Shown here piece after piece: positions 1,377 to 58,987 of a stretch of DNA of 64,000 nucleotides; the stretch's first letter is position 1; each line of letters opens with the position of its first letter. A program made the position numbers and the translations under genes. Below the pieces are notes generated by a model that was not told the DNA's origin, ran no database searches, and saw nothing but the letters and a program-made list of their open reading frames with translations. Source of the DNA: Patescibacteria group bacterium (lineage in GTDB: Bacteria; Patescibacteriota; Minisyncoccia; Phycocordibacterales; Phycocordibacteraceae); NCBI GenBank assembly GCA_018970425.1, contig JAGWWK010000003.1, positions 10,687-74,686 on the forward strand, in the 5' to 3' direction.

Positions 1377-2134
1377 CCCGAGCCCGCACACCGCGTTTGG
1401 GTCAGCACCTTCTCACGAACCCACGGGTGAGCGCACGACTCGCTGACGCCGCTCGCGTGACGAGCGGAACGCGCGTCCTCGAGGTCGGCCCGGGGAAGGG
1501 GGCACTCACTGCGGAGCTCCTCGCGCGCGGCGCACGCGTCCTTGCAGTAGAGAAGGACCCGGCGTTTGCAGCCATACTTCGCGAGCAATTTGCGGACGCG
1601 CTTGCGTCAGGCGCACTCACGCTCATAGATGGCGACATACGTGACCACACGCCCGACGCACTTATGGGACACGCGCCGTATGTTGTCGCGGCCAACATCC
1701 CGTACTACATCACGGGAGAACTCATACGCACATTTCTCACGGCAGCGCATCAGCCCACTACAATAGCGCTCCTCGTGCAGAAGGAGGTCGCGGAGCGTAT
1801 CGCCCGCTCTAAGAAAGAGAGCATACTCTCACTCTCCGTAAAGGTCTACGGTCAACCGCGATACATCACGACCGTGTCGCGTGGCAACTTCTCTCCGCCA
1901 CCTACGGTGGACTCTGCGATTCTCGCAATCACTGATATTTCACGAAAAAACTTCGCATCTGCTTCGGAGGAGCGTTTTTTTGAAATTGTAAAGGCGGGCT
2001 TTGCGCAAAAGCGCAAAACTCTCGCCGGCAACCTTACTCGCGCGCTCGGCACCTCGCTCGGCGTGCCTCCAAACATTCGCGCTGAAGATGTGCCGCTCGC
2101 TACATGGCGTATGCTTGCCGAGCGCGCACATTAG
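1373..2134 (+). CDS. rsmA: 16S rRNA (adenine1518/1519-N6)-dimethyltransferase RsmA/KsgA
   Basis: 'GQHLL' N-terminus, SAM motif 'VLEVGPGKGALT' and 'ANIPYYIT' (equivalent to NLPYNIS). ATGA overlap with the upstream helicase. Confidence 0.85.
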   Translation: MTRARTPRLGQHLLTNPRVSARLADAARVTSGTRVLEVGPGKGALTAELLARGARVLAVEKDPAFAAILREQFADALASGALTLIDGDIRDHTPDALMGHAPYVVAANIPYYITGELIRTFLTAAHQPTTIALLVQKEVAERIARSKKESILSLSVKVYGQPRYITTVSRGNFSPPPTVDSAILAITDISRKNFASASEERFFEIVKAGFAQKRKTLAGNLTRALGTSLGVPPNIRAEDVPLATWRMLAERAH

Positions 2135-3249
2135 CACCCCTTGCCGCCGACGCAAACGTGCACATGCGGGCCTGTATATCGCTCAGTAGTACAAATCGCC
2201 TCATTTAAGAACGTAGTCCCCGTAGCAGGGTCCCGATATCTGCAATTCGATACCCGCTCAAAGTTCTCTGTCACGCATTTCCAAAGACCTATGTCAGTAT
2301 CAAACGCATTACCGGGTCCGTGTGTTTTGTGACCCAATTCACTACCGCCCGTTATGGCAAAGGGGCACTTTTCACGGAGCGCGCAGATATAGTCAACCGC
2401 CTCGCACTGCAGGCCTCCTACGTCCGTACATCCGCCCTTCACCCCGTCTTGACCAAACACGCACGGAGCCCCGCCGGTTTTAGAACTAAACACAGGAACC
2501 TTGCATTGCGCGAGTCGCTCCCGGACTTGCCGCTCAGCCGCTGCTTTCTGTGCTGGTGTTTGTATTTTTCCTCCGCACCCTGCTTGCTCAACCTGCGGTG
2601 ATTTAGGAGGAGAGCTCGGCACCGTGGGCCCCGACGAGCCATGCACAATGATGCGCAAACCCAAAAGGACATTCGTTCCCACCACGCATACGCCACCAGG
2701 CATCGCTAGGCCAAGGAGGTACTGCCCGACAAAGGACGGCGGTCCATATGCGTAAGAAATAGTTCCTGGCATCCACACGTATGGGCCCGGCGTAGGAGGT
2801 CCCAAGACCACATATATTGCACCATTACTGCAAGGAATGAGCGTGAGAATAGGCCCACCAAAGGGAACCCCGGCCGGCACTGACTGCGCCCCAGGTGACT
2901 GGGAACCTCCTGGCCCCGTACCCCCAGTACGACGCTCTGGGCTTAGCGCGCGCGAGAGCTGAGTTTCAACAAACGACGCAACGCGACCGAGCGCACGATT
3001 CAACAAGTCATCGAACAAGGTGGAGGATCGAGGTGTCCCGGCTCGCGACTGACGCGGTGTGCTGGTTGCCGGCGTAGTTGTAGGAGTCGTGCTCGTACTC
3101 GAGGTTGCCGTTATGGTAAGAGTCTGCACTCCTCGCTCTAAAATTGCCCGGAGCTCAGCCGTAGCGTCAGTCGCGTGCGCGGAACATGGTATGAGCGCAA
3201 CACACAGAGCTACGCATGCAAAAAGTCTGTACACATATCTACTGTACAC
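2131..3249 (-). CDS. secreted hypothetical protein with a signal peptide, a Thr/Ser/Pro-rich low-complexity linker, a Gly/Pro-rich segment and a C-terminal domain carrying more than 12 Cys
   Basis: The N-terminus 'YSRYVYRLFACVALCVALIPCSAHA' is signal-peptide-like and the start is GTG. Low-complexity 'TSSTSTTPTTTPATSTP' linker and a Cys-rich C-terminus. Divergent from the T4SS-like operon. Confidence 0.5.
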   Translation of the reverse strand: MYSRYVYRLFACVALCVALIPCSAHATDATAELRAILERGVQTLTITATSSTSTTPTTTPATSTPRQSRAGTPRSSTLFDDLLNRALGRVASFVETQLSRALSPERRTGGTGPGGSQSPGAQSVPAGVPFGGPILTLIPCSNGAIYVVLGPPTPGPYVWMPGTISYAYGPPSFVGQYLLGLAMPGGVCVVGTNVLLGLRIIVHGSSGPTVPSSPPKSPQVEQAGCGGKIQTPAQKAAAERQVRERLAQCKVPVFSSKTGGAPCVFGQDGVKGGCTDVGGLQCEAVDYICALREKCPFAITGGSELGHKTHGPGNAFDTDIGLWKCVTENFERVSNCRYRDPATGTTFLNEAICTTERYTGPHVHVCVGGKGC

Positions 3250-3289
3250 TACGGCATGACACTCTAAATAAGCTTATATACTGAATGTA

Positions 3290-4078
3290 ATGCATCTGCG
3301 CAAAGAAGCGCTCATACTTGGCGGTGCCGCAGTGATTGCGTGCGGACTTGTGGCGGGTGCCTACGCGAGCACGCGACCCTCTAACTCGTCGTATGGCATA
3401 TCTCCTGTACGTATTGAGCTTCCGGAACACGCGGCATGGAAAGCGTCTATTGAGGCTATCGTCCCTAAGACGCCTCAGTCACTCGCGGAATACCGAGCCC
3501 CACAAGAACTATCAACAGGTGATGCTATTGCCCAGGAACTTGTTGCAGGTTACCTCAGTAAGAAACAGTCAGGCACATTTTCCGAAAACGATGCGCGCGA
3601 AATAGCTGCAGCTGTGATCGCACGAAATCCGATAGTGATCGAACCTTCTCGCATGTATCGAATGCAGGATATCCGCACAGACGCACAGGTCTCATTTCTC
3701 GACTACACCGGTGAACTAACAAACGTAGTAAGTCGATCCTCGCAAATAGACGAGCACGAACTTAAAACCTTTGCGCGATCAGTTGGAGAAGATAATCGTC
3801 GCGGTTCGCCAGCACTCCTTAAAAGCGCAAACCTGTACGCCTCTATTGTTCTAGACCTCGCGGCGCTACGCGTTCCAGAGGCATATGTCACAGAACACCT
3901 TGCCCTCGTGAACTCAATTTCTTCTCTGCAGCACGTGACGCAACTTATGGCCGAGTGGAACGGCGACCCGCTCTACTCACTCGCCTACATCGACGCATTT
4001 CTTGCCGCAGAGCGAGAGAGCAAACTTGCACTCGGCTCTCTGTACCGCAAGCTCGCAATTCGCGCAAAAACACTATGA
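3290..4078 (+). CDS. membrane-anchored hypothetical protein, first gene of the T4SS-like operon
   Basis: N-terminal TM/signal anchor 'ALILGGAAVIACGLVAGAYA'. No recognisable catalytic motif. Confidence 0.45.
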   Translation: MHLRKEALILGGAAVIACGLVAGAYASTRPSNSSYGISPVRIELPEHAAWKASIEAIVPKTPQSLAEYRAPQELSTGDAIAQELVAGYLSKKQSGTFSENDAREIAAAVIARNPIVIEPSRMYRMQDIRTDAQVSFLDYTGELTNVVSRSSQIDEHELKTFARSVGEDNRRGSPALLKSANLYASIVLDLAALRVPEAYVTEHLALVNSISSLQHVTQLMAEWNGDPLYSLAYIDAFLAAERESKLALGSLYRKLAIRAKTL

Positions 4079-6018
4079 AATATCTCGGTGCGACACTCAT
4101 CTTTTTCGCGCTTTTGTTGCCGTTTCAGGCAGCTCACGCTGAGCTGCCTATAACTGAGGCAGGTAACGGAAGACCCGCAACAGCAGATATCGCTCCATCT
4201 GCCCTCACTAACGAAAATGTGAGTGCGATTGCTGATAAGGTCTCCCGAGACATGAAAGCTCTCATCGATAAGGGTGAGCAACTTGGCTGCGGTCAAGCAT
4301 CTGGCGAGCATGGAGGGTCTCTCGCCGCATCACTAGAGCAACTGATGCGTGGACTCATTGACGATGTTAAGGGCTCCCTCATGGGGGCCGCTCGTGGGCA
4401 AGTGCGAGACTTTTTAAATCGAATCTCTGCTAATGCCGGCCCGCTCGCACCAGTAGTGCAGCCTCTCGTAAACTTCATCGGCGCAAAAGCGGACGCGCTT
4501 ATCAGACAAGTGGGGGAGAAGATTTTTAGCTTTATTGATCCTTCAGGCGCGGCTACTACTGCACTGAGCGGTGTTGCGCAGGCAGTGGGTCTAAATTTGG
4601 GGAACATTGGCATCGGGGCGGGCCTCCTTGGAGATCTGCCTGTCGCCGGTATTGGTGCGAGCGTGCCGGTTACTGAGACCGGCGCGCAACTCTCTCTCAC
4701 ACGCTCAATTGAAGGTAGTACTTTGCGTACTGAGCCGTTGATCAAGTACATGAGAGACGCGAGCGGTACTCAGCTGTACGTCGCCTGTGTCGTAAACCCT
4801 GCAATATCGAAATCTAAGAATGGGATCGTGGCTAACCAGGTGCGCGGCATGGTACAGACAGCTGCTGAAAAGCAGGTAACAAATGTCTTTGAGGCGTCTC
4901 AGCGGAGCGGTGACTTCTATGCGCGGAAGTCAATCGAGGCTTCAGCGCAGGGTATGTGCTCATCACACCGACAAGAGGTTATGGAAATGGTTATTAATCA
5001 GTTTAGCGGTGCGCGCACAACCGCACAGTGCTCAGAGGAAAATGAGCAAAAGCCTGGAGCAGACTTTGACTTTCAGAAGCAAGTAGCGTCCCTAGCTAAC
5101 CCAGGAAACGTGCCGGCAATGCAATTCTTCAATGCTATTGCAAAGGCAACGCAGGAGGGGCTTGCGGCTACAGCTGTCACCGTCCTCGAATATCATAAGA
5201 ATGAGGGATTTTCTAATACATATGAATGCACTGAAGCCGAGAGAGACCTCAAACCAGGGGAAGTGTGTATCAATGGCCAGGTAGTGCTGCACGGAAAGAT
5301 GGTAGCCGGAGCTTTGTCGAGCGCTCTTAATGCCCCGATGCAGCAGCTCATTCAAGCCGATGAGATTGGTGAACTGATAGATGCGATGTCTGCGGGCCTT
5401 ATGCAGGTCGCATTTCAGAATGTACGAGGAATTCTCGGACTTGTAGAGAAGAGTGGCTCGCGCGGCTCATACCTCGACGAGATGGTTGCACAAAACTATG
5501 ACGAGTCTGCTATTTCACCCCAGCGCGTCCTTACGGGGGACATAGCAGCCGCTCTCGATACTGAAACTCAGTATGGGCAAGCACTCGACATTATTCTTGC
5601 AGATCTTGCCACTGCAAAAAAGAACTATGAATCTGCGGCGGCATGTTACGAACCGATCCGCTCACAAGGCAAAGGGGACATTACCCCACAGATTGCTCGC
5701 GATGCAGTTGCACTTGCAACCACGACTGTCGGCATTGCCATCAATCCGCAGGTGTCACTCCTCCTAACTGAAAAAGCATCGAGCGACAGCGCGCTTGGCG
5801 AGCTGGTCGAGTTGGTCAATGCGGCAGAAACTGCACTCTCGCAAAAAGATATAGTCGAGGTTTCTTCCCGCTTTAGCGCACTCAAAGCATCAGGGCGCAT
5901 GCATACAACAACTGATCTGCAGGCGCTCATTAATAGTATGGAGTTTGGCGCCGCATCGATTGAGCGCATGCTTCGCGATGCCACTATTCTTCTAGCAGCG
6001 TGTACTAAAGCAGTATGA
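4074..6018 (+). CDS. large secreted hypothetical protein (about 648 aa), T4SS-like cluster component
   Basis: Start is taken at ATG 4074 (ATGA overlap with the upstream stop), giving the signal peptide 'MKYLGATLIFFALLLPFQAAHA'. The longer ORF call from 3955 overlaps the previous gene. Confidence 0.5.
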
Positions 6019-8630
6019 AGCGTCTCCTGATCGCAATCGGACTTCTGGGCGCACTACTGATTCCTAGTTTTGCTATTGCCGCACCGCCTACAGCGTCAGA
6101 GTGCACAATGCAGGCTCTCGAAAAGAAAGGGATTCTCTGTCCAGCCATCACAGTATCCGCGACAGAAGGTCGCCCCGAAAGAACCTTTGTCGGCGCAGCC
6201 ATATATGAACAGGGGACATGCAAGTGCGGGTATGATACAAATGGTCTAATTCAGTACGCGACACCGCTACGGTTGAACCTGGAAGATATCCTACAAACAA
6301 AGGAAGGTGACGGTAAGAATAAAAATACAAGTAACCTCAACTACAACTTCAATGCGCCTGCCGACGACCTAGCGACCGGCGCCTCGAGAAAAACGTCCAC
6401 AGACGTTGTAGGCGCTGGCGTAGCGCGCAAGGTTGAAGCGGAAGTTAAAACTCCCGACACATTCTGTGAAAATCTTCCAATTGGTTTTTCGTTCTTGTGC
6501 AACTTAATTAGCTCGCTATTCAACCTAGAATTCTGGTGGTTCATACTCGGAACGCTCGTGTGGATGCTGTTCCTCGTTGCATCAATGATGCTTGCCGTTG
6601 CGGTGTATATGGCGGACGGAGCAATCTACTATCTTGTAATTCATGCCGGTGTCATACTCAATAACACAATTGCGAATGACGGGATTCTTGCCGCGTGGGC
6701 TTTAGTCCGAGACCTTGCAAACCTGACAATTATTGCCGGATTCATTGCGGTCGGCATCAGCACCATTCTCGATATTGCGCAGTACGCTGCGAGCAAGTTC
6801 CTCGCACGCCTCATCATTGCGGCACTACTTGTAAACTTCAGCTATTTTTTGACCGGCGCAGTCATCGATGCCTCAAACTATCTTAGTGTCGCGGTTTATA
6901 ACAGCAAGCTTTTTATAAATGGATGCAGCGGGATGAAACAAGAGAGGGTACTCTCATCGGCCGGCGCGGCCCTTAATACAGCCGCGATGGGCGCATGGTC
7001 CGGAGATATGCGGCAGCAAACCTGTCTCGTTGCTCAGGCATTCTACAAAGAGACCAACATGTCCTCCTGGTCTCAAATTCAAAAAATGGCGCTGACTGCA
7101 TCTCGCACGCAGACAGCGCCCTCTGAGTTCGGTACGACGGAGAGCCGCGGGTACTACTTTATGCTACTCGTTATTGGAACTATGGGGCTTGCCTTTACCG
7201 TACTGTTGGCGTTCGTAATGGTTAACCTCGCGTACATGATCATTGTACGATTTATCGTCCTCGTCGTCCTTCTCGTCACGTCACCGATTGGCTTTGCTGG
7301 AATCAATGTTCCATTTCTAGAATCTGCCGCAAACCGCTGGTGGAGCGCGCTCCTCGGACAAGCATTTTTTGTTCCTGTCATGCTCTTTCTCCTCGCCACA
7401 GGGATCACAATCCTGAAGGGCTTCAATGACATGTTCAAGCGTATGGGTAGCGAGCAGAGCTTTACCAGCGCACTCATCGCCCTCCAAAATGCTGGTGCGG
7501 ATATGGGATGGGCTGTCGCTATTCTTCCTGTATTCCTTACATTTGCGCTCGGTGTCGGATTCATCGGAGTAGCGCTTGTCATCGGGCGGCAAATTACCGA
7601 GCAGTCAGACTTTAAACCATTTTACGCGTACGCGCAGAACGCGGCATGGGCAACGCTGCGCACGCCCGTCACCATCCCAGGGGGTCTTCTGAACGGCGTG
7701 ACCGGTTTGCTTAATCAATCCAAATTAGGAGCGTGGCTCTTAAAAGATGAGCGCGGTTTCATGGGTCAGATGAAAAACTTCATACGCATACCGTACCAGC
7801 TCTTTGCCGGAGGCATGCGCCAAGCAACGCGCCTTGGAGAGAAGCCGAAGGAGGGTGAGAAAGGGGTCTTCGAAACGATGCGAGAAGAAGCGAAAGCAGG
7901 GAAGGAGGAGCGCGCAGAAAAGGAGATGGAAAAGATTGTCCGCAGTGGTCCGCCCGAGGCGCAAGCGCGAGTGATTGAGAGTATGGATCCTGATGAAGCG
8001 ATTGACCGCTTTGGAATTAATAAACTCTTAGAACTTCAAGAAAAAGGACATCTCTCGTCTGACTACTTCAAAAAACTGCACGAAAGTGCAAAAGTCAGCG
8101 AGGCAGACAGAAAGAGCATTACCGATGCGCGCTTTTCCGACATCATGAGAGACTTTGGTCGAGGTAACTGGAGTAACGCTGCAGAGAAGATCGAGGCACT
8201 CGATGAGACGGAGCGCAAAATATTGTTTGAGGAGCGCAAAGAACTCCGTAACCAGAAAGAATTGCTCGCGCAACTTAAGGGTAAGACATTCGATGAAATT
8301 GCTGACAAACGCTCAGATGGAAAAGCAATGCGCGGCTTACGCAAAGAGGCTATGGCCACGCGTATCTCGGCAGCTGACGATGCTGGCCTTCGCAGTCTAG
8401 GGTCTTCGCTATCTAATAAAGATCTTCTAGAGCTTAATGTTGACCAGGTCCGCAAGCTCGGGCGTGCAGGAGCTCTGAAGGCATCACAGTTCAGACACAT
8501 TATGGAAGAGTCACGAGATGAAGCGGTAAAGGCCTACATTAGAGAGAATCATGCTGAAGATCTCGTGGGCCCAGGTACCCCAAAGCCAGCAAGCGCACCT
8601 CCAGCTCAGGGATCAAATCCGGCTTCGTAG
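6015..8630 (+). CDS. VirB6/TrbL-like polytopic membrane protein with a long charged (K/E-rich) cytoplasmic C-terminal tail
   Basis: Signal peptide 'MKRLLIAIGLLGALLIPSFAIA', then at least eight hydrophobic helices. One segment runs from 'FWWFILGTLVWMLFLVASMMLAVAVYM' to 'SPIGFAGINVPF'. About 330 aa of coiled-coil-like KE-rich tail. ATGA overlap with the upstream gene. Confidence 0.55.
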   Translation: MKRLLIAIGLLGALLIPSFAIAAPPTASECTMQALEKKGILCPAITVSATEGRPERTFVGAAIYEQGTCKCGYDTNGLIQYATPLRLNLEDILQTKEGDGKNKNTSNLNYNFNAPADDLATGASRKTSTDVVGAGVARKVEAEVKTPDTFCENLPIGFSFLCNLISSLFNLEFWWFILGTLVWMLFLVASMMLAVAVYMADGAIYYLVIHAGVILNNTIANDGILAAWALVRDLANLTIIAGFIAVGISTILDIAQYAASKFLARLIIAALLVNFSYFLTGAVIDASNYLSVAVYNSKLFINGCSGMKQERVLSSAGAALNTAAMGAWSGDMRQQTCLVAQAFYKETNMSSWSQIQKMALTASRTQTAPSEFGTTESRGYYFMLLVIGTMGLAFTVLLAFVMVNLAYMIIVRFIVLVVLLVTSPIGFAGINVPFLESAANRWWSALLGQAFFVPVMLFLLATGITILKGFNDMFKRMGSEQSFTSALIALQNAGADMGWAVAILPVFLTFALGVGFIGVALVIGRQITEQSDFKPFYAYAQNAAWATLRTPVTIPGGLLNGVTGLLNQSKLGAWLLKDERGFMGQMKNFIRIPYQLFAGGMRQATRLGEKPKEGEKGVFETMREEAKAGKEERAEKEMEKIVRSGPPEAQARVIESMDPDEAIDRFGINKLLELQEKGHLSSDYFKKLHESAKVSEADRKSITDARFSDIMRDFGRGNWSNAAEKIEALDETERKILFEERKELRNQKELLAQLKGKTFDEIADKRSDGKAMRGLRKEAMATRISAADDAGLRSLGSSLSNKDLLELNVDQVRKLGRAGALKASQFRHIMEESRDEAVKAYIRENHAEDLVGPGTPKPASAPPAQGSNPAS

Positions 8631-8635
8631 TACGC

Positions 8636-9220
8636 ATGCTCACTCAAGAAGAAATTAGTAAGAAATACAGCGAGGCACCACCGGATGTACAAGCGTTGGT
8701 GAAGGATCCGGATGTCTACGATGCATTCCACCTTATTCGACGCACGCATAACCTGCATGTTGATGCGGCAGGTGCACTCGCCGACCTTATAACGGCACTT
8801 ATTCTTGGTGCGGTGCCGCTTGCAGAGCTTGATGCTCATCTTGCTGAAGCGCTCCCTGGCGTCGATGCCGCAACACGCGAAAAAGTGAGGGCAGACCTTA
8901 ATGAACACATCTTCAAGCCCCTCAGAGAGCGCAAACGATCAGAAACCCCGGATCTCGCCACTGTGTACAAAGCCGCGCTTATAGAAAAGCTCGGCGGTAC
9001 ACTGCCTCGAATTGAGGAATCTCCAGCAAAAACAGTTCCTTCAGTACAAGTACCTCGAGAATCGATTGTGGCACAAAAGCTCGGGGTTAGTCCTCGAGCT
9101 TTGCAAACCAGAGAAGGGGACGGTGCCCCTCAGCCACGCTCCGGAGCGCAGGAACCTAGCCCTACGAGCACGCCGGTACGATATCGGAGCATCGACCCAT
9201 ATCGAGAACCGATTGAGTAG
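8636..9220 (+). CDS. hypothetical protein (194 aa, no TM), T4SS-like cluster
   Basis: ORF tightly spaced within the operon; no recognisable motifs. Confidence 0.4.
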   Translation: MLTQEEISKKYSEAPPDVQALVKDPDVYDAFHLIRRTHNLHVDAAGALADLITALILGAVPLAELDAHLAEALPGVDAATREKVRADLNEHIFKPLRERKRSETPDLATVYKAALIEKLGGTLPRIEESPAKTVPSVQVPRESIVAQKLGVSPRALQTREGDGAPQPRSGAQEPSPTSTPVRYRSIDPYREPIE

Positions 9221-9247
9221 TCCTCAAGAGCGTTATACTTTAGGTGT

Positions 9248-9676
9248 ATGCGCTTTCAAGTTCCGCAATTCATAGAGGTTGAAGACCGAATAATCGGTCC
9301 TTTTACCATTACGCAGTTTGTCTATCTTGCGGGAGGGTTGGGATTTCTCTTTGCGCTTTGGCTCACGCTCCCGCTCTGGGCCGCACTTCTTCTTGGCGTG
9401 CCAGTTGCAGCTTTGGGTGGCGCGCTTGCTTTTGTGCAAATAAATAATCGACCGCTCATTACCACACTCGAGCATGCCTTCTTCTACGCCCTTAAAGACA
9501 AACTCTACATCTGGTCGAAACGTACGAAATCGCCGGCTGAGCTTGCTAAAGAGGCTGTGGAGCGCACCGAGGATCCGTCTCGGTATGTGGTGAGCCCCAC
9601 ATCGAATAAACTTAAAGACATCGCGTGGTCACTCGACATCAAAGAGTCGATATATTCTGACCGAAACCAGCGGTAA
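9248..9676 (+). CDS. PrgI/VirB3-like small membrane protein (two TM helices)
   Basis: 'QVPQFIEVEDRIIGPFTITQFVYLAGGLGFLFALWLTLPLWAALLLGVPVAALGGALAF' matches the PrgI-family pattern (VP-FIE-EDRI-GPFT-Q-YL) followed by two TM segments. It lies immediately upstream of VirB4, as in Gram-positive T4SS. Confidence 0.6.
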   Translation: MRFQVPQFIEVEDRIIGPFTITQFVYLAGGLGFLFALWLTLPLWAALLLGVPVAALGGALAFVQINNRPLITTLEHAFFYALKDKLYIWSKRTKSPAELAKEAVERTEDPSRYVVSPTSNKLKDIAWSLDIKESIYSDRNQR

Positions 9677-9696
9677 AGCTGATACAATACTAACGA

Positions 9697-10365
9697 ATGG
9701 CGGCCGAACAACAGAAATCAAAGGCGGCGCAAGACTTCATCCCTGTTGAAGAGGTGCGTGGGGGAGTGATCGTGCTCAAAGACGGAACACTTGTGAGCGT
9801 CCTCATGGCATCATCCCTCAACTTCGCGCTTAAATCCGCAGAGGAACAGGAGGCAACACTTTTTCAGTTTCAATCATTCTTAAACTCGCTCGACTTTACC
9901 ATTCAGCTTTTTGTGCAGTCGCGAAAGCTCGATATCAGGCCCTACCTCACACTCCTCGAAGAACGGCTTGTGGCTCAAACTGATGACCTGATGCGGCTCC
10001 AAGTGCGCGGGTACATTGACTTCATTCGCGAGTTTACCGACAGGCAGAATATTATGTCAAAACACTTCTTCATCGTGATCCCGTATCGCGAGCCGCTCAC
10101 CCGCACCAGCGAAACAGTGCAACGAACGTTTTTTGGTGCTGGGTCGCTCTCCGCCAAAGAGAAGAGCATTGGATTTGAGGAACAGCGAACTCAGCTTGAA
10201 CAGCGCGTTGGAGTTGTGGAGCAGGGACTCACGCGTTGCGGTATCCGTACGACACCACTCGATACTGAATCCGTCATTGAACTCCTTTTTAAAGAATTTA
10301 ACCCGGGCGAACTCGAGAAGCCTATTTCCGCTACTGCACAGAGTGATGTGAGGATATCTACCTAG
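9697..10365 (+). CDS. virB4: VirB4/TraC/CagE-family ATPase, N-terminal domain fragment, ending in an in-frame TAG
   Basis: 'FIPVEEVRGGVIVLKDGTLVSVLMASSLNFALKSAEEQEA' is the typical VirB4 N-terminus. It is in the same reading frame as the 10369..12180 ORF and separated from it only by TAG at 10363-10365. Confidence 0.6.
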   Translation: MAAEQQKSKAAQDFIPVEEVRGGVIVLKDGTLVSVLMASSLNFALKSAEEQEATLFQFQSFLNSLDFTIQLFVQSRKLDIRPYLTLLEERLVAQTDDLMRLQVRGYIDFIREFTDRQNIMSKHFFIVIPYREPLTRTSETVQRTFFGAGSLSAKEKSIGFEEQRTQLEQRVGVVEQGLTRCGIRTTPLDTESVIELLFKEFNPGELEKPISATAQSDVRIST

Positions 10366-10368
10366 CAT

Positions 10369-12180
10369 ATGGGAATATTTGATTCATTGTTTGGCGCAAA
10401 AAAAGGTCCCGCGGAGGAGCTGACGCCATTTCTCCCGAAAGATATTTATGAGGCGGCAAAGCTCGACTTTGCCGACATCATTGCACCTGCAGCACTCAAG
10501 ATCACGCCGCGCGAACTCAGCCTGGGAGAAAAGCTCGTACGGACTTTTTATGTAATTTCATATCCGCGATTTCTTTCCGAAAGCTGGTTTGCGCCGATCA
10601 TTAACTTGGATAGAGCGTTCGATGTATCTATATTCGTGCATCCTATTGATACAGCTGGTGTGTTACGCAAATTTCAGAACAAGGTCGCTGAAATTCAGTC
10701 TCAAATTATGGCGCGAGAGCAAAAAGGGCTTGTGCGAGACCCCGTCCTCGACACCGCCTACCGCGACATTGAAGAACTTCGAGACAAACTCCAGCAGGCG
10801 CAAGAGCGCATCTTCGAAGTCGGACTGTATATCTCAATTTATGGCTCAAGTTATGAAGAACTCGATAAGGCGGAGTCTGAAATCCGCTCTATCCTTGACG
10901 CAAAGCTTGTCTACATTAAGCCGGCACTCTTTCAGCAAGAGCAGGGATTCTTGAGCGTCATCCCTACAGGCAAAGACCTGCTCGAGGTTACCTCTAAGCT
11001 CAACTCGTCTCCGCTCTCATCACTGTTCCCATTCATATCGTTCGACCTGACGTCCGATCGCGGCATTCTGTATGGGGTGAATCGCCACAACGCGTCCCTC
11101 ATCTTATTCGACCGATTTTCGCTAGAAAACTATAATTCCGTCACATTCGCGAAGTCCGGAGCTGGGAAGTCCTACGCGACCAAGCTCGAAATTCTCCGCT
11201 CGCTCATGTTCGACACCGAGGTTATTGTGATTGATCCAGAAAATGAGTACGAGTATCTCTCCAACGCTGTGGGAGGGCGGTTCTTCTCCATATCACTGTC
11301 GTCAGACCACCACATTAACCCGTTCGACCTCCCAGTGCCCCGCGAGGATGAGTCACCAGCCGATGTACTCCGCTCTAACATCATTAATCTTGTTGGTCTT
11401 TTCCGTCTCATGCTCGGCGGACTCTCGCCAGAGGAGGACGGCCTCATAGATCGTGCAATAACTGAAACCTATGCCCTGAAAGATATTACCGGTGCGAACA
11501 ACTTTGCCGGGCAAGAGCCTCCGCTCCTTTCGGACTTTGAACTTGTCCTTGCGGGTATGGAGGGCTCAGAATCTCTTGTGCAACGCCTCTCCAAATACAC
11601 TAAGGGAACATGGTCCGGATTCTTGAATAGACCAACGAACGTAGACATCAATAAAAAGTGCGTTGTCTTTTCCGTGCGCGACATGGAGGACGAGTTGAAG
11701 CCAGTCGCGATGTACATCATCACGCACTATATATGGAACGCAGTCCGCAAAGAGCTGAAAAAACGCCTCCTCGTCGTCGATGAGGCGTGGTGGATGATGA
11801 AAAATGACGATACGGCATCATTCTTGTTCTCGATGGCTAAACGCGGACGAAAGTACTTCCTTGGCCTTGCGACCATAACTCAAGACGTAGAGGATTTTCT
11901 TCGAAGTCCATACGGCCTCCCGATGCTCACTAACTCGTCGATCCAGCTCCTCCTCAAGCAATCTCCAACTGCGATCGATGCGGTTCAAAAAACATTTAAC
12001 CTCACTGATGAAGAAAAGTACCTGCTCCTCGAGTCCGATGTGGGGGAGGGGATATTTTTCGCGGGGCTAAAGCACGTCGCGATCAAGATCTTCGGCTCGT
12101 ACGCGGAAGACCAGATCATAACGTCAGACCCATCCCAGCTTCTTGCTATTGCTAAAGCGGCGCGTGAGCGACGTCAGTGA
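10369..12180 (+). CDS. virB4: VirB4/TraC/CagE-family T4SS ATPase, central and C-terminal part (in frame with 9697..10365)
   Basis: Walker A 'FAKSGAGKSYATK' and Walker B 'RLLVVDEAWWMM'. 'ITPRELSLGEKLVRTFYVISYPRF' is the VirB4 middle region. The combined length of 826 aa is typical of full-length VirB4. Confidence 0.8.
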   Translation: MGIFDSLFGAKKGPAEELTPFLPKDIYEAAKLDFADIIAPAALKITPRELSLGEKLVRTFYVISYPRFLSESWFAPIINLDRAFDVSIFVHPIDTAGVLRKFQNKVAEIQSQIMAREQKGLVRDPVLDTAYRDIEELRDKLQQAQERIFEVGLYISIYGSSYEELDKAESEIRSILDAKLVYIKPALFQQEQGFLSVIPTGKDLLEVTSKLNSSPLSSLFPFISFDLTSDRGILYGVNRHNASLILFDRFSLENYNSVTFAKSGAGKSYATKLEILRSLMFDTEVIVIDPENEYEYLSNAVGGRFFSISLSSDHHINPFDLPVPREDESPADVLRSNIINLVGLFRLMLGGLSPEEDGLIDRAITETYALKDITGANNFAGQEPPLLSDFELVLAGMEGSESLVQRLSKYTKGTWSGFLNRPTNVDINKKCVVFSVRDMEDELKPVAMYIITHYIWNAVRKELKKRLLVVDEAWWMMKNDDTASFLFSMAKRGRKYFLGLATITQDVEDFLRSPYGLPMLTNSSIQLLLKQSPTAIDAVQKTFNLTDEEKYLLLESDVGEGIFFAGLKHVAIKIFGSYAEDQIITSDPSQLLAIAKAARERRQ

Positions 12181-12209
12181 CCTCCTGTTTCACTTGGTAT
12201 ACTATAGAT

Positions 12210-13124
12210 ATGCGTTGGCTTGTTGTTGGCCTTCTTCTCTTTGCTCAACCTGTATGTGCGGCAGACCTATTGCTCTCAACGAGCCCTACCGCACCCCGAC
12301 CAGGTGAAAGAGTTACGGTGTCTGCAAAGATACCCGGGGACTCCTCAAGTACACTTTTCTCATGGATCCAAGATGGTATAGAGATTGCGCGTGGCTACGG
12401 ACAGACATCGGTAGAAATTACTATGCCCGCCTTAGGAAAAGAGGTAGAGATCGCTGTCACAGCAAATGGTGAAGAGCTTGTATCGCCACTTGTCCTCAGG
12501 CCTCAGCGAGTGACAATAGAATGGGAAGGATTTTCAACACGACCGCTCATGTACGATGGGCGTCCTATCTTCACGGCTCAAGGTGAAGTACGTTTTCAAG
12601 CGATCGCGGAACTTATAACACCGCGTGGTGAACGGATTATACCTGACGACATTAAGTACACATGGAGTGTCGATGGGGGAACTAGAAAAGAAAGTGGGTA
12701 TGGACGCACAACAATTACCGTCCGCCCTCCGTTCTATAACCGCCCGTTTACCGTGTCCCTCCGTGCAGAAACTCGCTCTGGACTCATCGCACGCGACGAA
12801 GTTACGGTGCAAGCTAAACTCCCATCTGTGGCCATTTACGAACTCTCACCGTTGCGCGGAGTGCTAACCCAGCGTGCCATCACCGCGAACACAACACTTT
12901 CTCAATCCGAAGTTACATTTGTGGCATACACCGTCGGCTCACCCAGAGAACGTGAATACCAATGGACACTCAACAATGAGCCCGTGGTTGTTGCGGGTGA
13001 CGATCCGCGGATCGTGACGTTCCGCAAAACGGGTGCGGGCGTCGGCATATATCAAGTGGGGTTCAATGCGAAAAGCGGTGCACCGTTTGATACGTTCAGC
13101 AGTTCTTTTCTGCTAAACTTCTGA
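12210..13124 (+). CDS. secreted protein with about three Ig-like/beta-sandwich repeats
   Basis: Signal peptide 'MRWLVVGLLLFAQPVCA'. Repeated modules of about 90 aa, for example '...TLFSWIQDG', '...KYTWSVDGG' and '...EYQWTLNNEP'. The ORF track starts at an upstream GTG at 12177. Confidence 0.45.
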   Translation: MRWLVVGLLLFAQPVCAADLLLSTSPTAPRPGERVTVSAKIPGDSSSTLFSWIQDGIEIARGYGQTSVEITMPALGKEVEIAVTANGEELVSPLVLRPQRVTIEWEGFSTRPLMYDGRPIFTAQGEVRFQAIAELITPRGERIIPDDIKYTWSVDGGTRKESGYGRTTITVRPPFYNRPFTVSLRAETRSGLIARDEVTVQAKLPSVAIYELSPLRGVLTQRAITANTTLSQSEVTFVAYTVGSPREREYQWTLNNEPVVVAGDDPRIVTFRKTGAGVGIYQVGFNAKSGAPFDTFSSSFLLNF

Positions 13125-13125
13125 T

Positions 13126-13521
13126 ATGCGGCTACTCCGGATCGCACTACTCACAGCAGGTATCAGCGCGGCGCACGCAGCTTTCGCGGCAACCGATATA
13201 ACTACGCGCCCAGAAAATTTTGTTCCGATAGCTCCCATCATGGGAGAATCCGGACAATACATCACGAGTGGGAGTCTCGGCCAATACATTAATACGCTAT
13301 TTCGCTATTCTATTGGGGTAGGCGCTACTCTCGCAATTATTTGGATTATGATTGGCGGATTTGAATATATCTTTTCAGAGGCGACTGAGTCGAAACAGAC
13401 TGGCCGCCGCCGCATTACGAACGCAATTTATGGCCTCCTCATCCTTCTATTCGTAAGTATAATTCTCTACACGATTGATCCTTTATCGTTAAACCTCGAT
13501 CCGTTTAGAACAGGGAGTTAG
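13126..13521 (+). CDS. VirB2/TrbC-like T4SS pilin candidate
   Basis: 131 aa. Signal peptide 'MRLLRIALLTAGISAAHAAFA' followed by two hydrophobic helices, 'IGVGATLAIIWIMIGGFEYIF' and 'AIYGLLILLFVSIILYTI'. This is the classic T-pilin architecture. Confidence 0.5.
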   Translation: MRLLRIALLTAGISAAHAAFAATDITTRPENFVPIAPIMGESGQYITSGSLGQYINTLFRYSIGVGATLAIIWIMIGGFEYIFSEATESKQTGRRRITNAIYGLLILLFVSIILYTIDPLSLNLDPFRTGS

Positions 13522-13524
13522 TAC

Positions 13525-14727
13525 ATGCGTATCTCACAACTTGCGCTTGCATTTGGTTTTCTAGCGATACTTGGGGTAGTGGCTCTCGGAATATGGCTGG
13601 GATCGCGCATGCTTACACAAGGATCAGAAGGCGCGAGAACAGCGCTACAGGGTTTTACCTCATTCTTACCCTATGGACAGCCCGTGCCCGGTGAATCCAT
13701 AATCGGGACAGGCGCAGAGATACAGGAGGAACCTATTGTACGAATGAGGCGCGTTTCAGATGCACCGGTTGCAGGCGCTGCTTTCTTTGAAGAGAACGGC
13801 CGACCCATCCTTCGATTTGTTGAACGGGAAACTGGGCATATATATGATGCATCGCCAGCGAATAAAACGCTCGTACGCAGATCGAACACAACTATTCCTG
13901 CAGTTATGAATGCATTTTTCTTAAATGCGACCTCAACGCTCATGCGCGTGTACGAGACCCCTGACTCAGTTCGCACCATTCTCGGCACACTAGGGACCAC
14001 TACCGAGGAGGATGCCACCTTGGCTACTACTAACTTCACTGACTACGCATCTATCGCGGTACAGAACGGTAGCATAGTAGGTATTCGACGGACTACCCAG
14101 GGCGCTGAAGTAGACCTTCTTTCCGGCGGACGAATACCGGGACGAACTGTCACTCGGACATCATTGACATCTTGGATTCCAGCACTTGCGGGGGCGAGCG
14201 TCTACCTCACCGCCTCGCCAAGCGGAACTGCTCTTGGTTCCTCATATGCGGTATCTAGAAGTGGCCTTGTACGCATAATTGGCCCTCTTCCTGGCCTAGA
14301 AATACTTCCTAGTGACACAGGGAAAACGCTTCTTGCATCCGAGGGAGGAGCGAATCGCGCCGTTCTCGGAACCGTGACAAATGTAGATTCATTCGTCCCA
14401 TTGCCATTTGAAACATTCATTGAAAAATGCGTTTGGGCATCCAAGTCCGACGTGTTGGTTATCTGCGCCATCCCCAAGTCATTACCTGTGGGTATCTACC
14501 CTGATGCGTGGAAACTGGGAGAAATTACTACGGCTGACGAGTTCTGGTCGGTCGACCTTGAAACGGGAGCAACAATACGCATCGCGGATCCGGAGACGGA
14601 GGGTGTAGGAGTGCTAGATGCGCATCAACTTACGACCGATCCAACAAATCAATATCTTGCTTTTATAAATCGCACGGATATGTCGCTCTGGATTCTTAGT
14701 CTAGAGACGCCGGAGACTGGGGAATAG
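13525..14727 (+). CDS. membrane-anchored extracytoplasmic hypothetical protein (400 aa), last gene of the T4SS-like operon
   Basis: N-terminal TM 'LALAFGFLAILGVVALGIWLG'. The rest is Ser/Thr/Gly-rich and looks beta-rich. Confidence 0.4.
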   Translation: MRISQLALAFGFLAILGVVALGIWLGSRMLTQGSEGARTALQGFTSFLPYGQPVPGESIIGTGAEIQEEPIVRMRRVSDAPVAGAAFFEENGRPILRFVERETGHIYDASPANKTLVRRSNTTIPAVMNAFFLNATSTLMRVYETPDSVRTILGTLGTTTEEDATLATTNFTDYASIAVQNGSIVGIRRTTQGAEVDLLSGGRIPGRTVTRTSLTSWIPALAGASVYLTASPSGTALGSSYAVSRSGLVRIIGPLPGLEILPSDTGKTLLASEGGANRAVLGTVTNVDSFVPLPFETFIEKCVWASKSDVLVICAIPKSLPVGIYPDAWKLGEITTADEFWSVDLETGATIRIADPETEGVGVLDAHQLTTDPTNQYLAFINRTDMSLWILSLETPETGE

Positions 14728-15178
14728 TCGGATCGATATAGCGAACGACAATGTGGCGGAGTGGACCCTCGCCATGAGACATGGTCTGAATATCAGTAGC
14801 ATCTTTAAGAGTTGCGTGTATGATCATGCGCTCGTAGGCGTTCATTGGAGGAAGCTCTACATCGTAACGGAACGTCCGTGCACGCTCAGCTACAAGCTTT
14901 GCCTGGTCTTCAAGTGACTTAATCTTTTTATGGTGATATCCGTTTACGTCTATGACAAAATGGAAGTCGCGAGGAACTTCTTTTTCCAGCATCTTTTTAA
15001 CAATATGATTGAGTGCCGATAGGGTCTCTCCATTTTTTCCGATCAGTTTTCCTGATTCAATCGTACGAATGGTAAAAATGGTGCTACCTGCAGCTTCAGA
15101 TACCTCTATACCATCAACCGGCAGGCCAAGCTTGCTAATAATACTTCGGACTGATGTCTCAATGAGTGCTGTGTCCAT
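14696..15178 (-). CDS. jag: Jag/KhpB RNA-binding protein (KH + R3H domains)
   Basis: KH motif 'LIGKNGETLSALNHIV' and R3H 'YERMIIHATL'. It sits downstream of yidC, as in the canonical origin-region operon. Confidence 0.75.
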   Translation of the reverse strand: MDTALIETSVRSIISKLGLPVDGIEVSEAAGSTIFTIRTIESGKLIGKNGETLSALNHIVKKMLEKEVPRDFHFVIDVNGYHHKKIKSLEDQAKLVAERARTFRYDVELPPMNAYERMIIHATLKDATDIQTMSHGEGPLRHIVVRYIDPTIPQSPASLD

Positions 15179-15899
15179 GGGTTTCCGCGTGGCGACGCTT
15201 TGCCACTACTTCCTGCAGTATGCCAAAAATATTTGAGGTGAGGAAGTAGAGGGCTATCGCGGCGCTTGCTATGTAGGCAATACCCCCAAGGAGGATAGGA
15301 AACACATACCGCATTTGAATGTGCATAGAGGCCATGAGGTCATCTTGAAATGCTTTACCCGTCTTTTCAGGCGCGGCAGGCATCATAAGGCGTGAAAGCC
15401 AGTACTGCGTTCCCGCAACGAGGACGGCCAGTACTACAGACGGCTCATTGAGCGGGACTATATTAAGGAATACAAAGCTTGAAACCTGTGGCTCAACCAC
15501 AAACGGGTACAGGAGTGCCGTATCAAAAACTCCCGTCTTGCTATCGGCCCATATGACCCAGTAGAGTCCGAAAATGATCGGGAGCTGCAAGAGGATAATA
15601 AAAAAGCTAGCGAACGGGTTTACCTTGTGCTCTCGGTACAGCGCGAGCGTCTTCATCGCGAGTTCCTGCGGTGCATTCTTATGTGCTTCTCGTAATACTC
15701 GGAGCTGAGGTTCGAGAGAGCGGAGAACAATCTGCGTATGCGAGGCTTTTACACCAAGAGGGAATAGGGCAACCTTAACGAGTACAGTAAGAAGTACGAT
15801 AGCGAGGCCGACGTCTCCCGCAGGCATCCAAGATACTAAAAATGCCAGCGCGTTGTAGATCGGGAGATAAATGAACGAGTGAAAAAATGCTACGAACAC
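15159..15899 (-). CDS. yidC: membrane protein insertase YidC (short Gram-positive-type form)
   Basis: 'LLTVLVKVALFPLGVKASHTQIVLRSLEPQLRVLREAHKNAPQELAMKTLALYREHKVNP' matches the YidC/Oxa1 core, with further TM helices downstream. Confidence 0.8.
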   Translation of the reverse strand: MFVAFFHSFIYLPIYNALAFLVSWMPAGDVGLAIVLLTVLVKVALFPLGVKASHTQIVLRSLEPQLRVLREAHKNAPQELAMKTLALYREHKVNPFASFFIILLQLPIIFGLYWVIWADSKTGVFDTALLYPFVVEPQVSSFVFLNIVPLNEPSVVLAVLVAGTQYWLSRLMMPAAPEKTGKAFQDDLMASMHIQMRYVFPILLGGIAYIASAAIALYFLTSNIFGILQEVVAKRRHAETHGHSTH

Positions 15900-15908
15900 C
15901 CGGCCATT

Positions 15909-16214
15909 CTATCCTAGGAGCACTGCTTTACCTAACGAATCACGCACGACTGCGTATGGTGCACGAAGCGCTTCTCCTGTCGGGTACACCACGACCCCAC
16001 ATCGAGGGTCTGCGAGCCCCCGTACAATATGACGCACTCGCCGACGCAGTCTGTTCCGATCTACGGCTCTACGGAGGGTTTTTTTTGAAATTATGACAGC
16101 GTAACCTGGGGGTGCCTGATCAAAAAAAGACACGGACCCGTACTGCGTACGGGTCCGACGACTTGGGCGGGATGAAAAAGTAGCGCGAGGCAAGCGAAGC
16201 GATGCTCGATACAT
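15909..16214 (-). CDS. rnpA: RNase P protein component RnpA (start trimmed to an internal ATG so that it does not overlap rpmH)
   Basis: 'VIISKKTLRRAVDRNRLRRRVRHIV' matches the RnpA signature 'sKK..k.AveRNRiKR'. The ORF-track start at 16307 would overlap rpmH; ATG at 16214 leaves a 13-nt spacer. Confidence 0.75.
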   Translation of the reverse strand: MYRASLRLPRATFSSRPSRRTRTQYGSVSFFDQAPPGYAVIISKKTLRRAVDRNRLRRRVRHIVRGLADPRCGVVVYPTGEALRAPYAVVRDSLGKAVLLG

Positions 16215-16227
16215 GCCTACCTCGGCA

Positions 16228-16362
16228 CTATACGGCGAGACGAGCGCGTCCTTTCTGTCGGCGACGAGCGAGTACTTTGCGACCTGCGGCCGTTTTTGAA
16301 CGGACAAGGAATCCGTGAGTAGTTGCTCGCTTGCGCTTTTTTGGTTGATATGTTCGTTTCAT
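16228..16362 (-). CDS. rpmH: 50S ribosomal protein L34 (not present in the ORF track)
   Basis: The minus strand translates to '[44 protein letters not shown]' (44 aa), a near-canonical L34. Confidence 0.9.
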
Positions 16363-16375
16363 AATCGATGCGTGG

Positions 16376-16395
16376 TTATACACACATTATACACA
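16376..16395. promoter_or_regulatory. two direct DnaA-box-like 9-mers (TTATACACA x2) in the rpmH-dnaA intergenic region
   Basis: 'TTATACACA' at 16376-16384 and again at 16387-16395; both fit the relaxed DnaA-box consensus TTATNCACA. They lie in the 95-bp spacer upstream of dnaA. Confidence 0.5.
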
Positions 16396-16457
16396 GTGCA
16401 CTAGAAATCTCAACGTTTTCCGACGCCTTGCCACATACCCTGAGTAGGGGATAATGA

Positions 16458-17807: not shown

Positions 17808-17939
17808 GATTCCCCACACTCGCATGATCTCTCTTCACACAGATAGTCCACAGTGGTACCGAGAAAATGATCATATTCTAAGCCACCATTCAGAAACCCA
17901 CATAATTCACAGAGCATTAGTATAAAGAAGTTTGTATAT

Positions 17940-26241: not shown

Positions 26242-26315
26242 CATCTCTAAAATGGTACCACCTCTCACGCATTGCACTCCTTTCGACAACGGATGGTACG
26301 CGGTACCATTGAGGC

Positions 26316-58317: not shown

Positions 58318-58363
58318 CATGCCCACAGTGTACTCACAAACAACAAAAGGTACACTGTGGACG

Positions 58364-58987
58364 ATGGCACGCGGAGCATTCATCGTTATAGACGGCATGG
58401 ATGGGTCGGGTAAGGGGACGCAAATGCGACTTTTGCAAACGGCGCTCTCAGGGGGCTCGTTCCTCTTTACGCGAGAACCAGGAGGCACTCCACGAGCAGA
58501 GGAGATACGCACCGAGCTTTTGCGGCACGGCGGAGCACCCTCTAACCCGGTGTGCGATTTTTTTCTCTTTTGGGCAGCTCGGGGTTCGCATATCGAAGAC
58601 GCCGTAGAGCCTGCGCGTGCGCGTGGTGTGCACGTAATCTCAGACCGCTACGACTCATCAACATTTGCGTTTCAGATTTACGGTGAGGAACACCGCGCGC
58701 TCGAGCCGGTCTTTCATGCAGTTCGTTCGTCGCTCCCGGAGTACTATCGCCCTGACGCGTACATCATTCTCGATCTCCCAGCAGAGGTCGCCTTTAAACG
58801 CAGGACGGCGGATGTAGCACAAGAAAAGTCAAAGTTTGATGTCCGTCCCATCGCGTACCACCAGCGAGTGCGTGACGGTTTTTTGGCACTTACGTCGTTT
58901 GCGCCTACGCACTATATTGATGCGAATCGCACACCTGAAGAAATGCATCGAGACGTGCTACGCGTAGTCTCCGCATGTGCCGTATAA
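58364..58987 (+). CDS. tmk: thymidylate kinase
   Basis: P-loop 'FIVIDGMDGSGKGTQ', 'REPGGT' and 'DRY' motifs. Confidence 0.85.
   Translation: MARGAFIVIDGMDGSGKGTQMRLLQTALSGGSFLFTREPGGTPRAEEIRTELLRHGGAPSNPVCDFFLFWAARGSHIEDAVEPARARGVHVISDRYDSSTFAFQIYGEEHRALEPVFHAVRSSLPEYYRPDAYIILDLPAEVAFKRRTADVAQEKSKFDVRPIAYHQRVRDGFLALTSFAPTHYIDANRTPEEMHRDVLRVVSACAV

Follow-up and report, generated by a model that had tools for sequence, protein, structure and literature searches.

Chromosomal, non-conjugative type IV secretion systems (T4SSs) of Patescibacteria were described in 2023–2025, and the gene cluster at 2131–14727 of the stretch studied here is one of these known systems. Nearly all of these ultra-small bacteria have such a system next to the replication origin. 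The stretch, referred to as the window, is the whole 64 kb of DNA that was analyzed (contig JAGWWK010000003.1 of assembly GCA_018970425.1, positions 10,687 to 74,686). A survey of 3,035 Patescibacteria genomes recovered the system across 2,400 genomes and placed its VirB4 proteins in a monophyletic Patescibacteria clade nested in MPF_FATA (Quinonero-Coronel et al., 2025, Microb Genom; PMC12102498). In that survey TrsD was the most frequent neighbor of virB4, with PrgI/VirB3, VirB6 and VirB2-like pilins of family PF18895 also found near it; relaxases were almost absent, type IV coupling proteins (T4CPs) were encoded elsewhere, and the systems lay near dnaA, dnaN, rnpA, ksgA and rpmH, especially in Paceibacteria. 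In Southlakia, transposon sequencing (Tn-seq) has shown the T4SS cluster to be essential for epibiotic growth (Wang et al., 2023, Cell; PMC10633639). Few other machines are known to be indispensable to epibiotic life in this huge bacterial radiation, most of which is uncultivated. A 2025 review singles out the Patescibacteria systems as the most exciting additions to the T4SS superfamily (PMC12857230), and a 2026 preprint reports tubular structures at the host interface that are possibly T4SS pili (bioRxiv 10.64898/2026.06.21.733656).

The cluster in the window very probably encodes a Patescibacteria-clade T4SS of a Paceibacteria-type bacterium, one that is derived from MPF_FATA, has lost DNA processing, is inherited vertically beside oriC and works by the mechanism proposed below. 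The Paceibacteria-type affiliation follows from the nearest homologues. The reading as a whole draws on the genes present and their topology, on how far they are conserved and syntenic, and on domain architectures, with the mechanism taken from homologous T4SSs. The first-pass annotation of this DNA, made from the letters alone, had proposed a monoderm-type, non-conjugative secretion machine that is probably central to host interaction, and this fits every test made here and coincides with the published descriptions (PMC12102498; PMC10633639; PMC12857230). Whilst not new in kind, the window holds a complete Paceibacteria example with all operon members delimited, and comparison with 80 related loci shows that its hypothetical genes are fixed parts, that its VirB4 is more conserved than DnaA, and that the pilin as a rule carries a cell-wall hydrolase.

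Core components and conserved position

The locus comprises eleven genes (named here g1 to g10, with g7 in two parts) between uvrD-like/rsmA and jag-yidC-rnpA-rpmH-dnaA-dnaN. The first, g1, is divergent, and the other ten form a co-directional operon on the forward strand (3290–14727) in which neighboring genes are separated by gaps of no more than 30 nt or share 4-nt overlaps. Twelve operon genes had been counted previously, with the second starting at a GTG at 3955; there are in fact ten open reading frames (ORFs), and the second begins at an ATG at 4075, in an ATGA overlap with the first.

The identity of the core follows from matches above curated thresholds for VirB4 (CD1110), PrgI and T4SS_pilin, together with a TrsD-like partner. 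The VirB4 ATPase, g7b (10369–12180, forward strand; 603 aa), matches the NCBIfam profile NF045971, “VirB4-like conjugal transfer ATPase, CD1110 family,” with 371 bits (cut-off 325) over profile positions 179–732, and is of the MPF_FATA/CD1110 type. It carries a Walker A motif (AKSGAGKS), a Walker B motif (LLVVDE) and the Pfam domains P-loop_TraG, AAA_10 and DUF87. The best 120 of 8000 scored homologues are 82–100% identical to it, and every named one among them is from Patescibacteria. Directly upstream lies g7a (9697–10365, forward strand; 222 aa), a TrsD/TraD-like protein that matches the NCBIfam TrsD profile NF041427 (6.3e-8), has a precomputed Pfam match to PF26593 (TraC-like), and aligns to positions 2–165 of NF045971, making it the equivalent of the VirB4 N-terminal domain; a single-sequence PDB search with it returned nothing meaningful. 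The two proteins together have 825 aa, equal to one full-length VirB4. An annotation of 9697–12180 as a single VirB4 ATPase gene is therefore right about the family but not about the gene number, since an in-frame TAG at 10363–10365 ends g7a 3 nt before the start of g7b.

Two small membrane proteins had been recognized correctly from their architecture. The PrgI/VirB3-like protein, g6 (9248–9676, forward strand; 142 aa), has two transmembrane (TM) segments and scores 34.9 bits against PrgI PF12666 (gathering score 27). The VirB2-like pilin, g9 (13126–13521, forward strand; 131 aa), has a signal peptide and two hydrophobic TM helices, scores 33.3 bits against T4SS_pilin PF18895 (gathering score 26.6), and is the sole pilin-like ORF in the window.

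The fourth gene, g4 (6015–8630, forward strand; 871 aa), can with moderate confidence be called an extended VirB6-like protein. It is polytopic, with a signal peptide, an ecto-domain of ~150 aa, at least six TM-like segments and a charged cytoplasmic tail of ~270 aa in which Lys and Glu make up 22.5% of residues vs. 6.7% in the core. It has the VirB6/TrbL topology of at least five TM helices in a gene near virB3/virB4, and it sits two genes upstream of PrgI, a position conserved in related loci. Five of 27 homologues match TrbL/VirB6 PF04610, the best (P0141) with 28.7 bits (gathering score 25.9). The assignment thus has indirect support, and the fold was judged similar to that of a solved VirB6 structure. 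A single-sequence PDB search with g4 gave nothing meaningful, and tblastn of its TM core against 72,556 plasmids gave no match.

Relatives were sought in a genome set with a single representative per GTDB species, which returned 571, and the best 80 loci (L006–L085), labeled Paceibacteria, Kaiser-, Nomura-, Taylor-, Zambryski- and Wolfebacteria, among others, were compared. Across these species-level loci the order uvrD-rsmA-(g2-g3-g4-g5-PrgI-TrsD-VirB4-g8-pilin-g10)-jag-yidC-rnpA-dnaA-dnaN is conserved, and the cluster occupies the same slot, with Pfam-labeled flanks, in two Patescibacteria genomes that are complete (831 kb and 721 kb). The locus is thus inherited vertically beside oriC, and not as an integrated conjugative element (ICE), because the same gene order and slot recur in 80 species-level Paceibacteria genomes.

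VirB4 is the most conserved of the proteins compared, with a median identity to the window protein of 74% (80/80 loci), followed within the cluster by the TrsD-like protein (52%; 78/80), PrgI (43%; 74/80), the pilin (38%; 43/80), g10 (29%; 60/80), g8 (27%; 43/80) and g4 (26%; 51/80). The median for VirB4 also lies above those of the housekeeping neighbors DnaA (51%; 50/80), UvrD (50%; 22/80), RsmA (45%; 30/80), YidC (40%; 57/80) and DnaN (35%; 46/80). VirB4 identity exceeds that of DnaA in all 50 loci that have both, a comparison with some bias, as the loci were chosen by VirB4 similarity, but in which the gap is large. VirB4 is evidently under strong purifying selection, a degree of constraint that is unusual for a secretion ATPase.

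The features that place the cluster in the Patescibacteria-clade T4SS (PMC12102498) are a VirB4 of MPF_FATA ancestry, immediately preceded by a separate gene for a TrsD-like protein, PrgI/VirB3, a VirB6-like protein, a PF18895 VirB2-like pilin, a chromosomal position next to dnaA, dnaN, rnpA, rpmH and ksgA, and no relaxase or T4CP among the ORFs scanned in the window; no essential difference from that system was seen. The T4SS of Southlakia epibionticum (Saccharimonadia; SEML1_0006–0019, PMC10633639) is also similar. It combines PrgI and PF18895 pilins with a VirB4 whose N-domain protein is encoded next to it, has cell-wall hydrolases and a large TrbL/VirB6-like protein that ends in a helical tail, shows no recognizable relaxase or coupling protein, and lies at the start of the chromosome. 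It differs in having six short pilins in an array, where the window has one; a lysozyme/glucosaminidase downstream of virB4, where the window has a VanY/LAS-like domain in the divergent gene; and an NTF2-like (VirB8-like) protein, a kind not found in the window cluster. No beta-propeller is annotated in the Southlakia cluster, whereas the window has one in g10.

More distant are the conjugative MPF_FATA T4SSs of Gram-positive bacteria (TrsC-TrsD-TrsE of pGO1/pSK41, PrgH-PrgI-PrgJ-PrgK of pCF10, and the Clostridioides difficile CTn CD1110), which share the VirB4 family (NF045971, above cut-off), PrgI, the division into TrsD and VirB4 as known from pGO1, a VirB6-like protein, the use of peptidoglycan hydrolases and the lack of an outer-membrane core. 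These systems reside on plasmids or ICEs with a relaxase and a T4CP and have no VirB2 pilin, whereas the window cluster is chromosomal, has a pilin, shows no DNA-processing genes in view, and has accessory proteins unrelated to theirs.

Putative cell-wall hydrolases and accessory envelope proteins

The divergent gene g1 (2131–3249, reverse strand; 372 aa) was rightly described at first pass as secreted and Cys-rich, with a signal peptide and 17 Cys. After the signal peptide come a T/S/P linker, module A (aa ~120–206) and C-terminal domain B (aa ~228–372), and 250 homologues were found among 1.84 billion representative proteins. Domain B is Cys/His-rich and, in 37 aligned homologues, has C274, T275, G302, G306, D317 and H362 invariant and E304, H307, H310, G313 and H364 conserved in at least 90%, giving the pattern GGSExGH..THxxGxAxD ... 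HxH. An H-x6-D motif (S/T-x-H-x-x-G-x-A-x-D) followed by H-x-H is the zinc-site pattern of LAS/M15 peptidases, and both metal-ligand motifs of VanY-like zinc peptidases are present in domain B. When its profile was compared with the PDB, the only matches at E ≤ 10 were 4jid (E 0.087) and 4mph (E 0.39), both VanY-like D-Ala-D-Ala carboxypeptidases, and both alignments fall on the two metal-binding motifs. One g1 homologue matches Peptidase_M15_4 (E 0.0028, below the gathering score) and another matches Hedgehog-N (HH_signal; E 0.034), both of which are LAS families.

Module A is also found by itself, as a secreted protein of about 100–130 aa, with more than 100 cluster representatives and no known family. 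In L010, L013, L017, L045 and L066 it occupies the equivalent divergent position after rsmA, and L045 has it joined to PG_binding_1.

In distant g1 homologues domain B lies downstream of a PF18895 pilin domain, and in six related T4SS operons it is fused to the gene at the pilin position. A C-terminal extension of at least 80 aa follows the pilin hairpin in 62 of 69 g9-homologous ORFs of related loci, with a median of 173 aa. A Pfam census of the pilin-position genes, covering 64 of the g9-homologous ORFs, found T4SS_pilin in 58, together with NlpC/P60 (7 ORFs), VanY (5), YkuD (4), Amidase_5 (3), SLT, Peptidase_M15_4 and CHAP (2 each), and Amidase_2, 3D and Endolysin-like (1 each). Examples are a pilin domain (residues 153–209) with VanY (269–376; 46.5 bits) in L068 (12894–14033), pilin (369–427) with VanY (502–616; 53 bits) in L032 (11864–13714), pilin (107–174) with NlpC/P60 (251–351; 41.7 bits) in L048 (12917–14020), and pilin (291–357) with Amidase_2 (435–586; 66.6 bits) in L060 (5077–6876). 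The window represents the split state, with a bare pilin in g9 and the VanY/LAS-like domain B on the separate divergent g1.

Neither the fusion in relatives nor the unfused pilin with a separate hydrolase-like gene appears in the main or supplementary text of PMC12102498, and pilin-hydrolase fusions are likewise unmentioned in what a search returned of PMC12857230. In a literature search that was not exhaustive, the fusion in relatives is apparently previously unreported. It is possible, though rather doubtful, that the “pilin” of Paceibacteria T4SSs is a modular carrier of interchangeable peptidoglycan-cleaving domains. Were the fused proteins built into the pilus or located at its base, the whole would act as a conduit that cuts the wall, and polymorphic “warheads” matched to the cell-wall chemistry of the host would offer both a mechanism and a host-range determinant for the essential Patescibacteria T4SS. 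The link between pilin and hydrolase also provides a testable handle, through the specificity of the enzyme on host vs. self peptidoglycan and its location on the pilus.

The remaining members of the operon are envelope proteins and one probable cytoplasmic protein. At first pass, at least five large secreted or membrane-anchored proteins had been listed as belonging to no recognizable family; this holds for g2 and g3, but not for g8, which has a PKD_6 domain, or g10, which is a beta-propeller. The first gene of the operon, g2 (3290–4078, forward strand; 262 aa), encodes a bitopic membrane-anchored protein with an N-terminal TM segment and has no Pfam or PDB match. The secreted protein g3 (4075–6018, forward strand; 647 aa) has a signal peptide, and its family has no match in a PDB profile search or in Pfam scans of individual members. 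The probable cytoplasmic protein g5 (8636–9220, forward strand; 194 aa) begins with a small domain, continues in a Pro-rich linker and has an invariant DPYRE motif close to the C-terminus, and its family likewise gave no match in a PDB profile search or among individual members in Pfam.

Single-sequence PDB searches with g1, g2, g3 and g5 gave nothing meaningful, and with tblastn alone these four genes had seemed lineage-specific. That idea was rejected, as iterative hidden Markov model searches within related loci show g2, g3 and g5 to be conserved positional families. Homologues of g2 account for 26 of 27 first forward-strand ORFs after rsmA (a TSP3_bac repeat is present in 10 of 25 family members and missing from the window copy), homologues of g3 for 26 of 29 ORFs in the equivalent position upstream of the VirB6-like gene, and homologues of g5 for 29 of 35 ORFs between the VirB6-like gene and PrgI. 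In g5 residues D187, P188, Y189 and E191 are invariant. In at least 45 related loci DPYRE stands 2–4 residues before the end of the protein and is confined to the gene at this position; it occurs once in the window. The motif could serve in docking, with the ATPase or the VirB6 tail as partner.

The secreted Ig/PKD-like protein g8 (12210–13124, forward strand; 304 aa) has a signal peptide, scores 31.7 bits against PKD_6 (gathering score 25), and directly follows VirB4 in the 43 of 80 loci where it was detected. The last operon gene, g10 (13525–14727, forward strand; 400 aa), encodes a membrane-anchored extracytoplasmic protein whose AlphaFold2 model (predicted local distance difference test score 89.8) has a TM helix at residues 3–34, a linker and an all-beta seven-bladed propeller, for which Foldseek returned WD40 propellers (E about 6e-8). 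Some g10 homologues match PD40 and one matches PG_binding_1; in the 60 of 80 loci with a detectable g10, it always lies just before jag or yidC. Judged from their positions in these loci, g2, g3, g5, g8 and g10 are fixed parts of the machine. None of the five, including the DPYRE tail of g5, the PKD domain of g8 and the beta-propeller of g10, appears as a fixed operon member in the main or supplementary text of PMC12102498.

Proposed mechanism and alternative readings

By analogy with homologous T4SSs, the cytoplasmic VirB4 ATPase g7b and its separate N-domain g7a would dock on a membrane platform formed by the PrgI-like g6 and the VirB6-like g4. This motor would pull the VirB2-like pilin g9 from the membrane and polymerize it into a pilus or conduit through the cell wall, whilst the putative secreted VanY/LAS-like peptidase g1 would open peptidoglycan, either its own or that of the host, a hydrolase domain being apparently tethered to the pilin in most relatives. 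The envelope proteins g2, g3, g8 (PKD) and g10 (beta-propeller) may provide a scaffold for the apparatus or its targeting, and the DPYRE-tailed g5 would act on the cytoplasmic side. The machine would serve contact-dependent exchange with a host, by effector export and/or macromolecule import, and not conjugation, which is very unlikely as its function.

Several points weigh against this proposal. The polytopic build and KE-rich tail that the first-pass annotation described for its VirB6/TrbL-like protein stand, and some homologues carry the family match, but the window g4 has no direct Pfam TrbL match (none at E ≤ 1), and Foldseek of its model against the PDB gave no match at E ≤ 1e-3. The assignment of g1 as a peptidase depends on matches that are below threshold, though mutually agreeing, and the pilin-like proteins of relatives, with their large fused domains, may or may not polymerize. 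No VirB8-like component was identified in the cluster: g2, g3, g5 and g8 gave no sequence match to a VirB8-like (NTF2-fold) protein, g2 being bitopic and of the right size. Finally, only 64 kb was examined, and a T4CP or relaxase could be encoded elsewhere in the genome, T4CP homologues being common elsewhere in Patescibacteria genomes (PMC12102498).

Amongst the alternatives, a machine for importing DNA or other nucleic acids, similar to Helicobacter pylori ComB or archaeal Ced, is improbable. Like ComB, the cluster is chromosomal and lacks a VirD4 coupling protein and a relaxase, its VirB4 has a weak match to CedB (NF041017, 6.7e-8), and Patescibacteria cannot make nucleotides; the 2026 preprint, which also notes the monophyletic VirB4, proposes that they feed on host RNA (bioRxiv 10.64898/2026.06.21.733656). 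The CedB match, however, spans only ~70 residues of the ATPase core, a generic P-loop region, and none of the cluster proteins showed a domain for binding nucleic acids. The ComB system belongs to a diderm and has VirB7, VirB9 and VirB10 homologues forming a core with an MPF_T-class VirB4, and Pfam and NCBIfam scans of the cluster proteins returned no VirB7-, VirB9- or VirB10-like match, in agreement with the absence of these proteins reported at first pass. In Southlakia, moreover, comEC-dependent DNA uptake by transformation is dispensable whereas the T4SS is essential (PMC12857230). The suggestion of ComB-like DNA uptake made in the first-pass annotation is accordingly the least supported of its options.

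A pilus for adhesion or attachment only, with wall-remodeling enzymes and no translocation of a substrate, has a similarly small probability. The VirB2-like pilin, the many surface proteins (PKD, beta-propeller, and TSP3 in relatives) and the lack of a coupling protein in the window would suit such a structure. Type IV pili already give adhesion in Patescibacteria, however, and the window itself encodes a PilB-type ATPase (24592–26289); a role beyond attachment is also suggested by the extreme degree to which VirB4 is conserved and by the extended channel protein of VirB6 type.

That the cluster is an ICE, or the remnant of one, transferring DNA to other cells is very unlikely and already largely refuted. 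This idea draws on the conjugation-type parts, namely a VirB4 of the CD1110/MPF_FATA conjugation family, PrgI, TrsD and VirB6, but the same slot and flanks are kept in 80 species-level genomes, with DnaA at only about 51% identity. Of what defines a conjugative MPF_FATA system or ICE (a relaxase, VirD4/TcpA and mobility), nothing was found in the window, and the position is fixed across species. No VirD4/T4CP-like P-loop ORF, and no VirB4-like P-loop ORF other than g7b, turned up in the 64 kb; the ORFs of about 400 aa or more, to which the relaxase scan was confined, included no relaxase; and no integrase was found among the larger ORFs scanned, those remaining outside the cluster being housekeeping genes and the PilB-type ATPase. 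The lack of VirD4 and of a relaxase noted at first pass is borne out within this scope, and, where an ICE with a relaxase and integrase nearby had been raised as the outcome that would speak against a secretion machine, a fixed chromosomal slot was found. Relaxases occur in only 103 of 3,035 Patescibacteria genomes (PMC12102498). A genomic island was rejected on the same synteny, with no tRNA at the cluster borders and no break in base composition at the cluster.

That VirB4 is a decayed pseudogene, or that its TAG is read through or recoded, has next to no probability and is already refuted by conservation: the TAG at 10363–10365 is in frame and interrupts the match to one full-length VirB4 profile, but in 77/77 related loci a TrsD-like ORF terminates shortly upstream of the ATPase gene, the stops vary (TAA 60, TAG 12, TGA 5) and the ATPase gene mostly lies in a different frame after a gap of 1–7 nt, the best 120 homologues have 575–614 aa, the ATPase is conserved across species, and TrsD/TrsE of pGO1 provide a precedent for the split (PMC12102498). 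As the same two-ORF split is also present in independent assemblies, it is evidently native, and not a pseudogene, a sequencing error or a site of read-through; recoding at the stop codon was rejected on the varying stop type and downstream frame.

Flanking genes and other features of the window

Upstream, the cluster is bordered by a uvrD-like helicase gene (54–1376) and rsmA/ksgA (1373–2134). The downstream flank, jag-yidC-rnpA-rpmH-dnaA-dnaN, spans 14696–19040 and includes, identified by translation, jag (14696–15178), yidC (15159–15899) and rpmH (16228–16362) on the reverse strand and dnaA (16458–17807) on the forward strand, the last of these 1.7 kb downstream of the cluster. On the reverse strand, too, is rnpA, listed as an ORF at 15909–16307 with a probable start at Met31 (~16217). 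The GC skew changes sign at the jag-dnaN flank, and the placement of the cluster next to the replication origin, as first annotated, agrees with both the gene content and the skew.

The divergent start codons of g1 and g2 are only 40 bp apart (3249–3290), so that their promoters must overlap the 5′ end of the other gene or each other; no consensus promoter was detected between them, and a scan of 1900–16600 for promoters and terminators was uninformative, with counts not above the shuffled expectation. The 95-bp spacer between rpmH and dnaA (16363–16457) contains two tandem TTATACACA boxes, at 16376–16384 and 16387–16395, as well as the region's best divergent pairs of sigma-70-like hexamers. 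Matches to the DnaA box across the window number 7 vs. 9.7 expected, and are not enriched.

Elsewhere in the window, the gene at 24592–26289 (reverse strand) encodes a PilB/T2SSE-type ATPase (PF00437, 369 bits) with an MshEN domain, probably belonging to a type IV pilus system, which besides the T4SS is the surface machine implicated in host attachment by Patescibacteria. At 61941–63215 (forward strand) lies the gene for a probable surface protein of 424 aa, which has PKD domains and a Lamin Tail Domain. The 515-aa ORF at 56965–58512 (reverse strand) matches ThyX (Thy1) only over residues 95–294 and is much longer than a typical ThyX.

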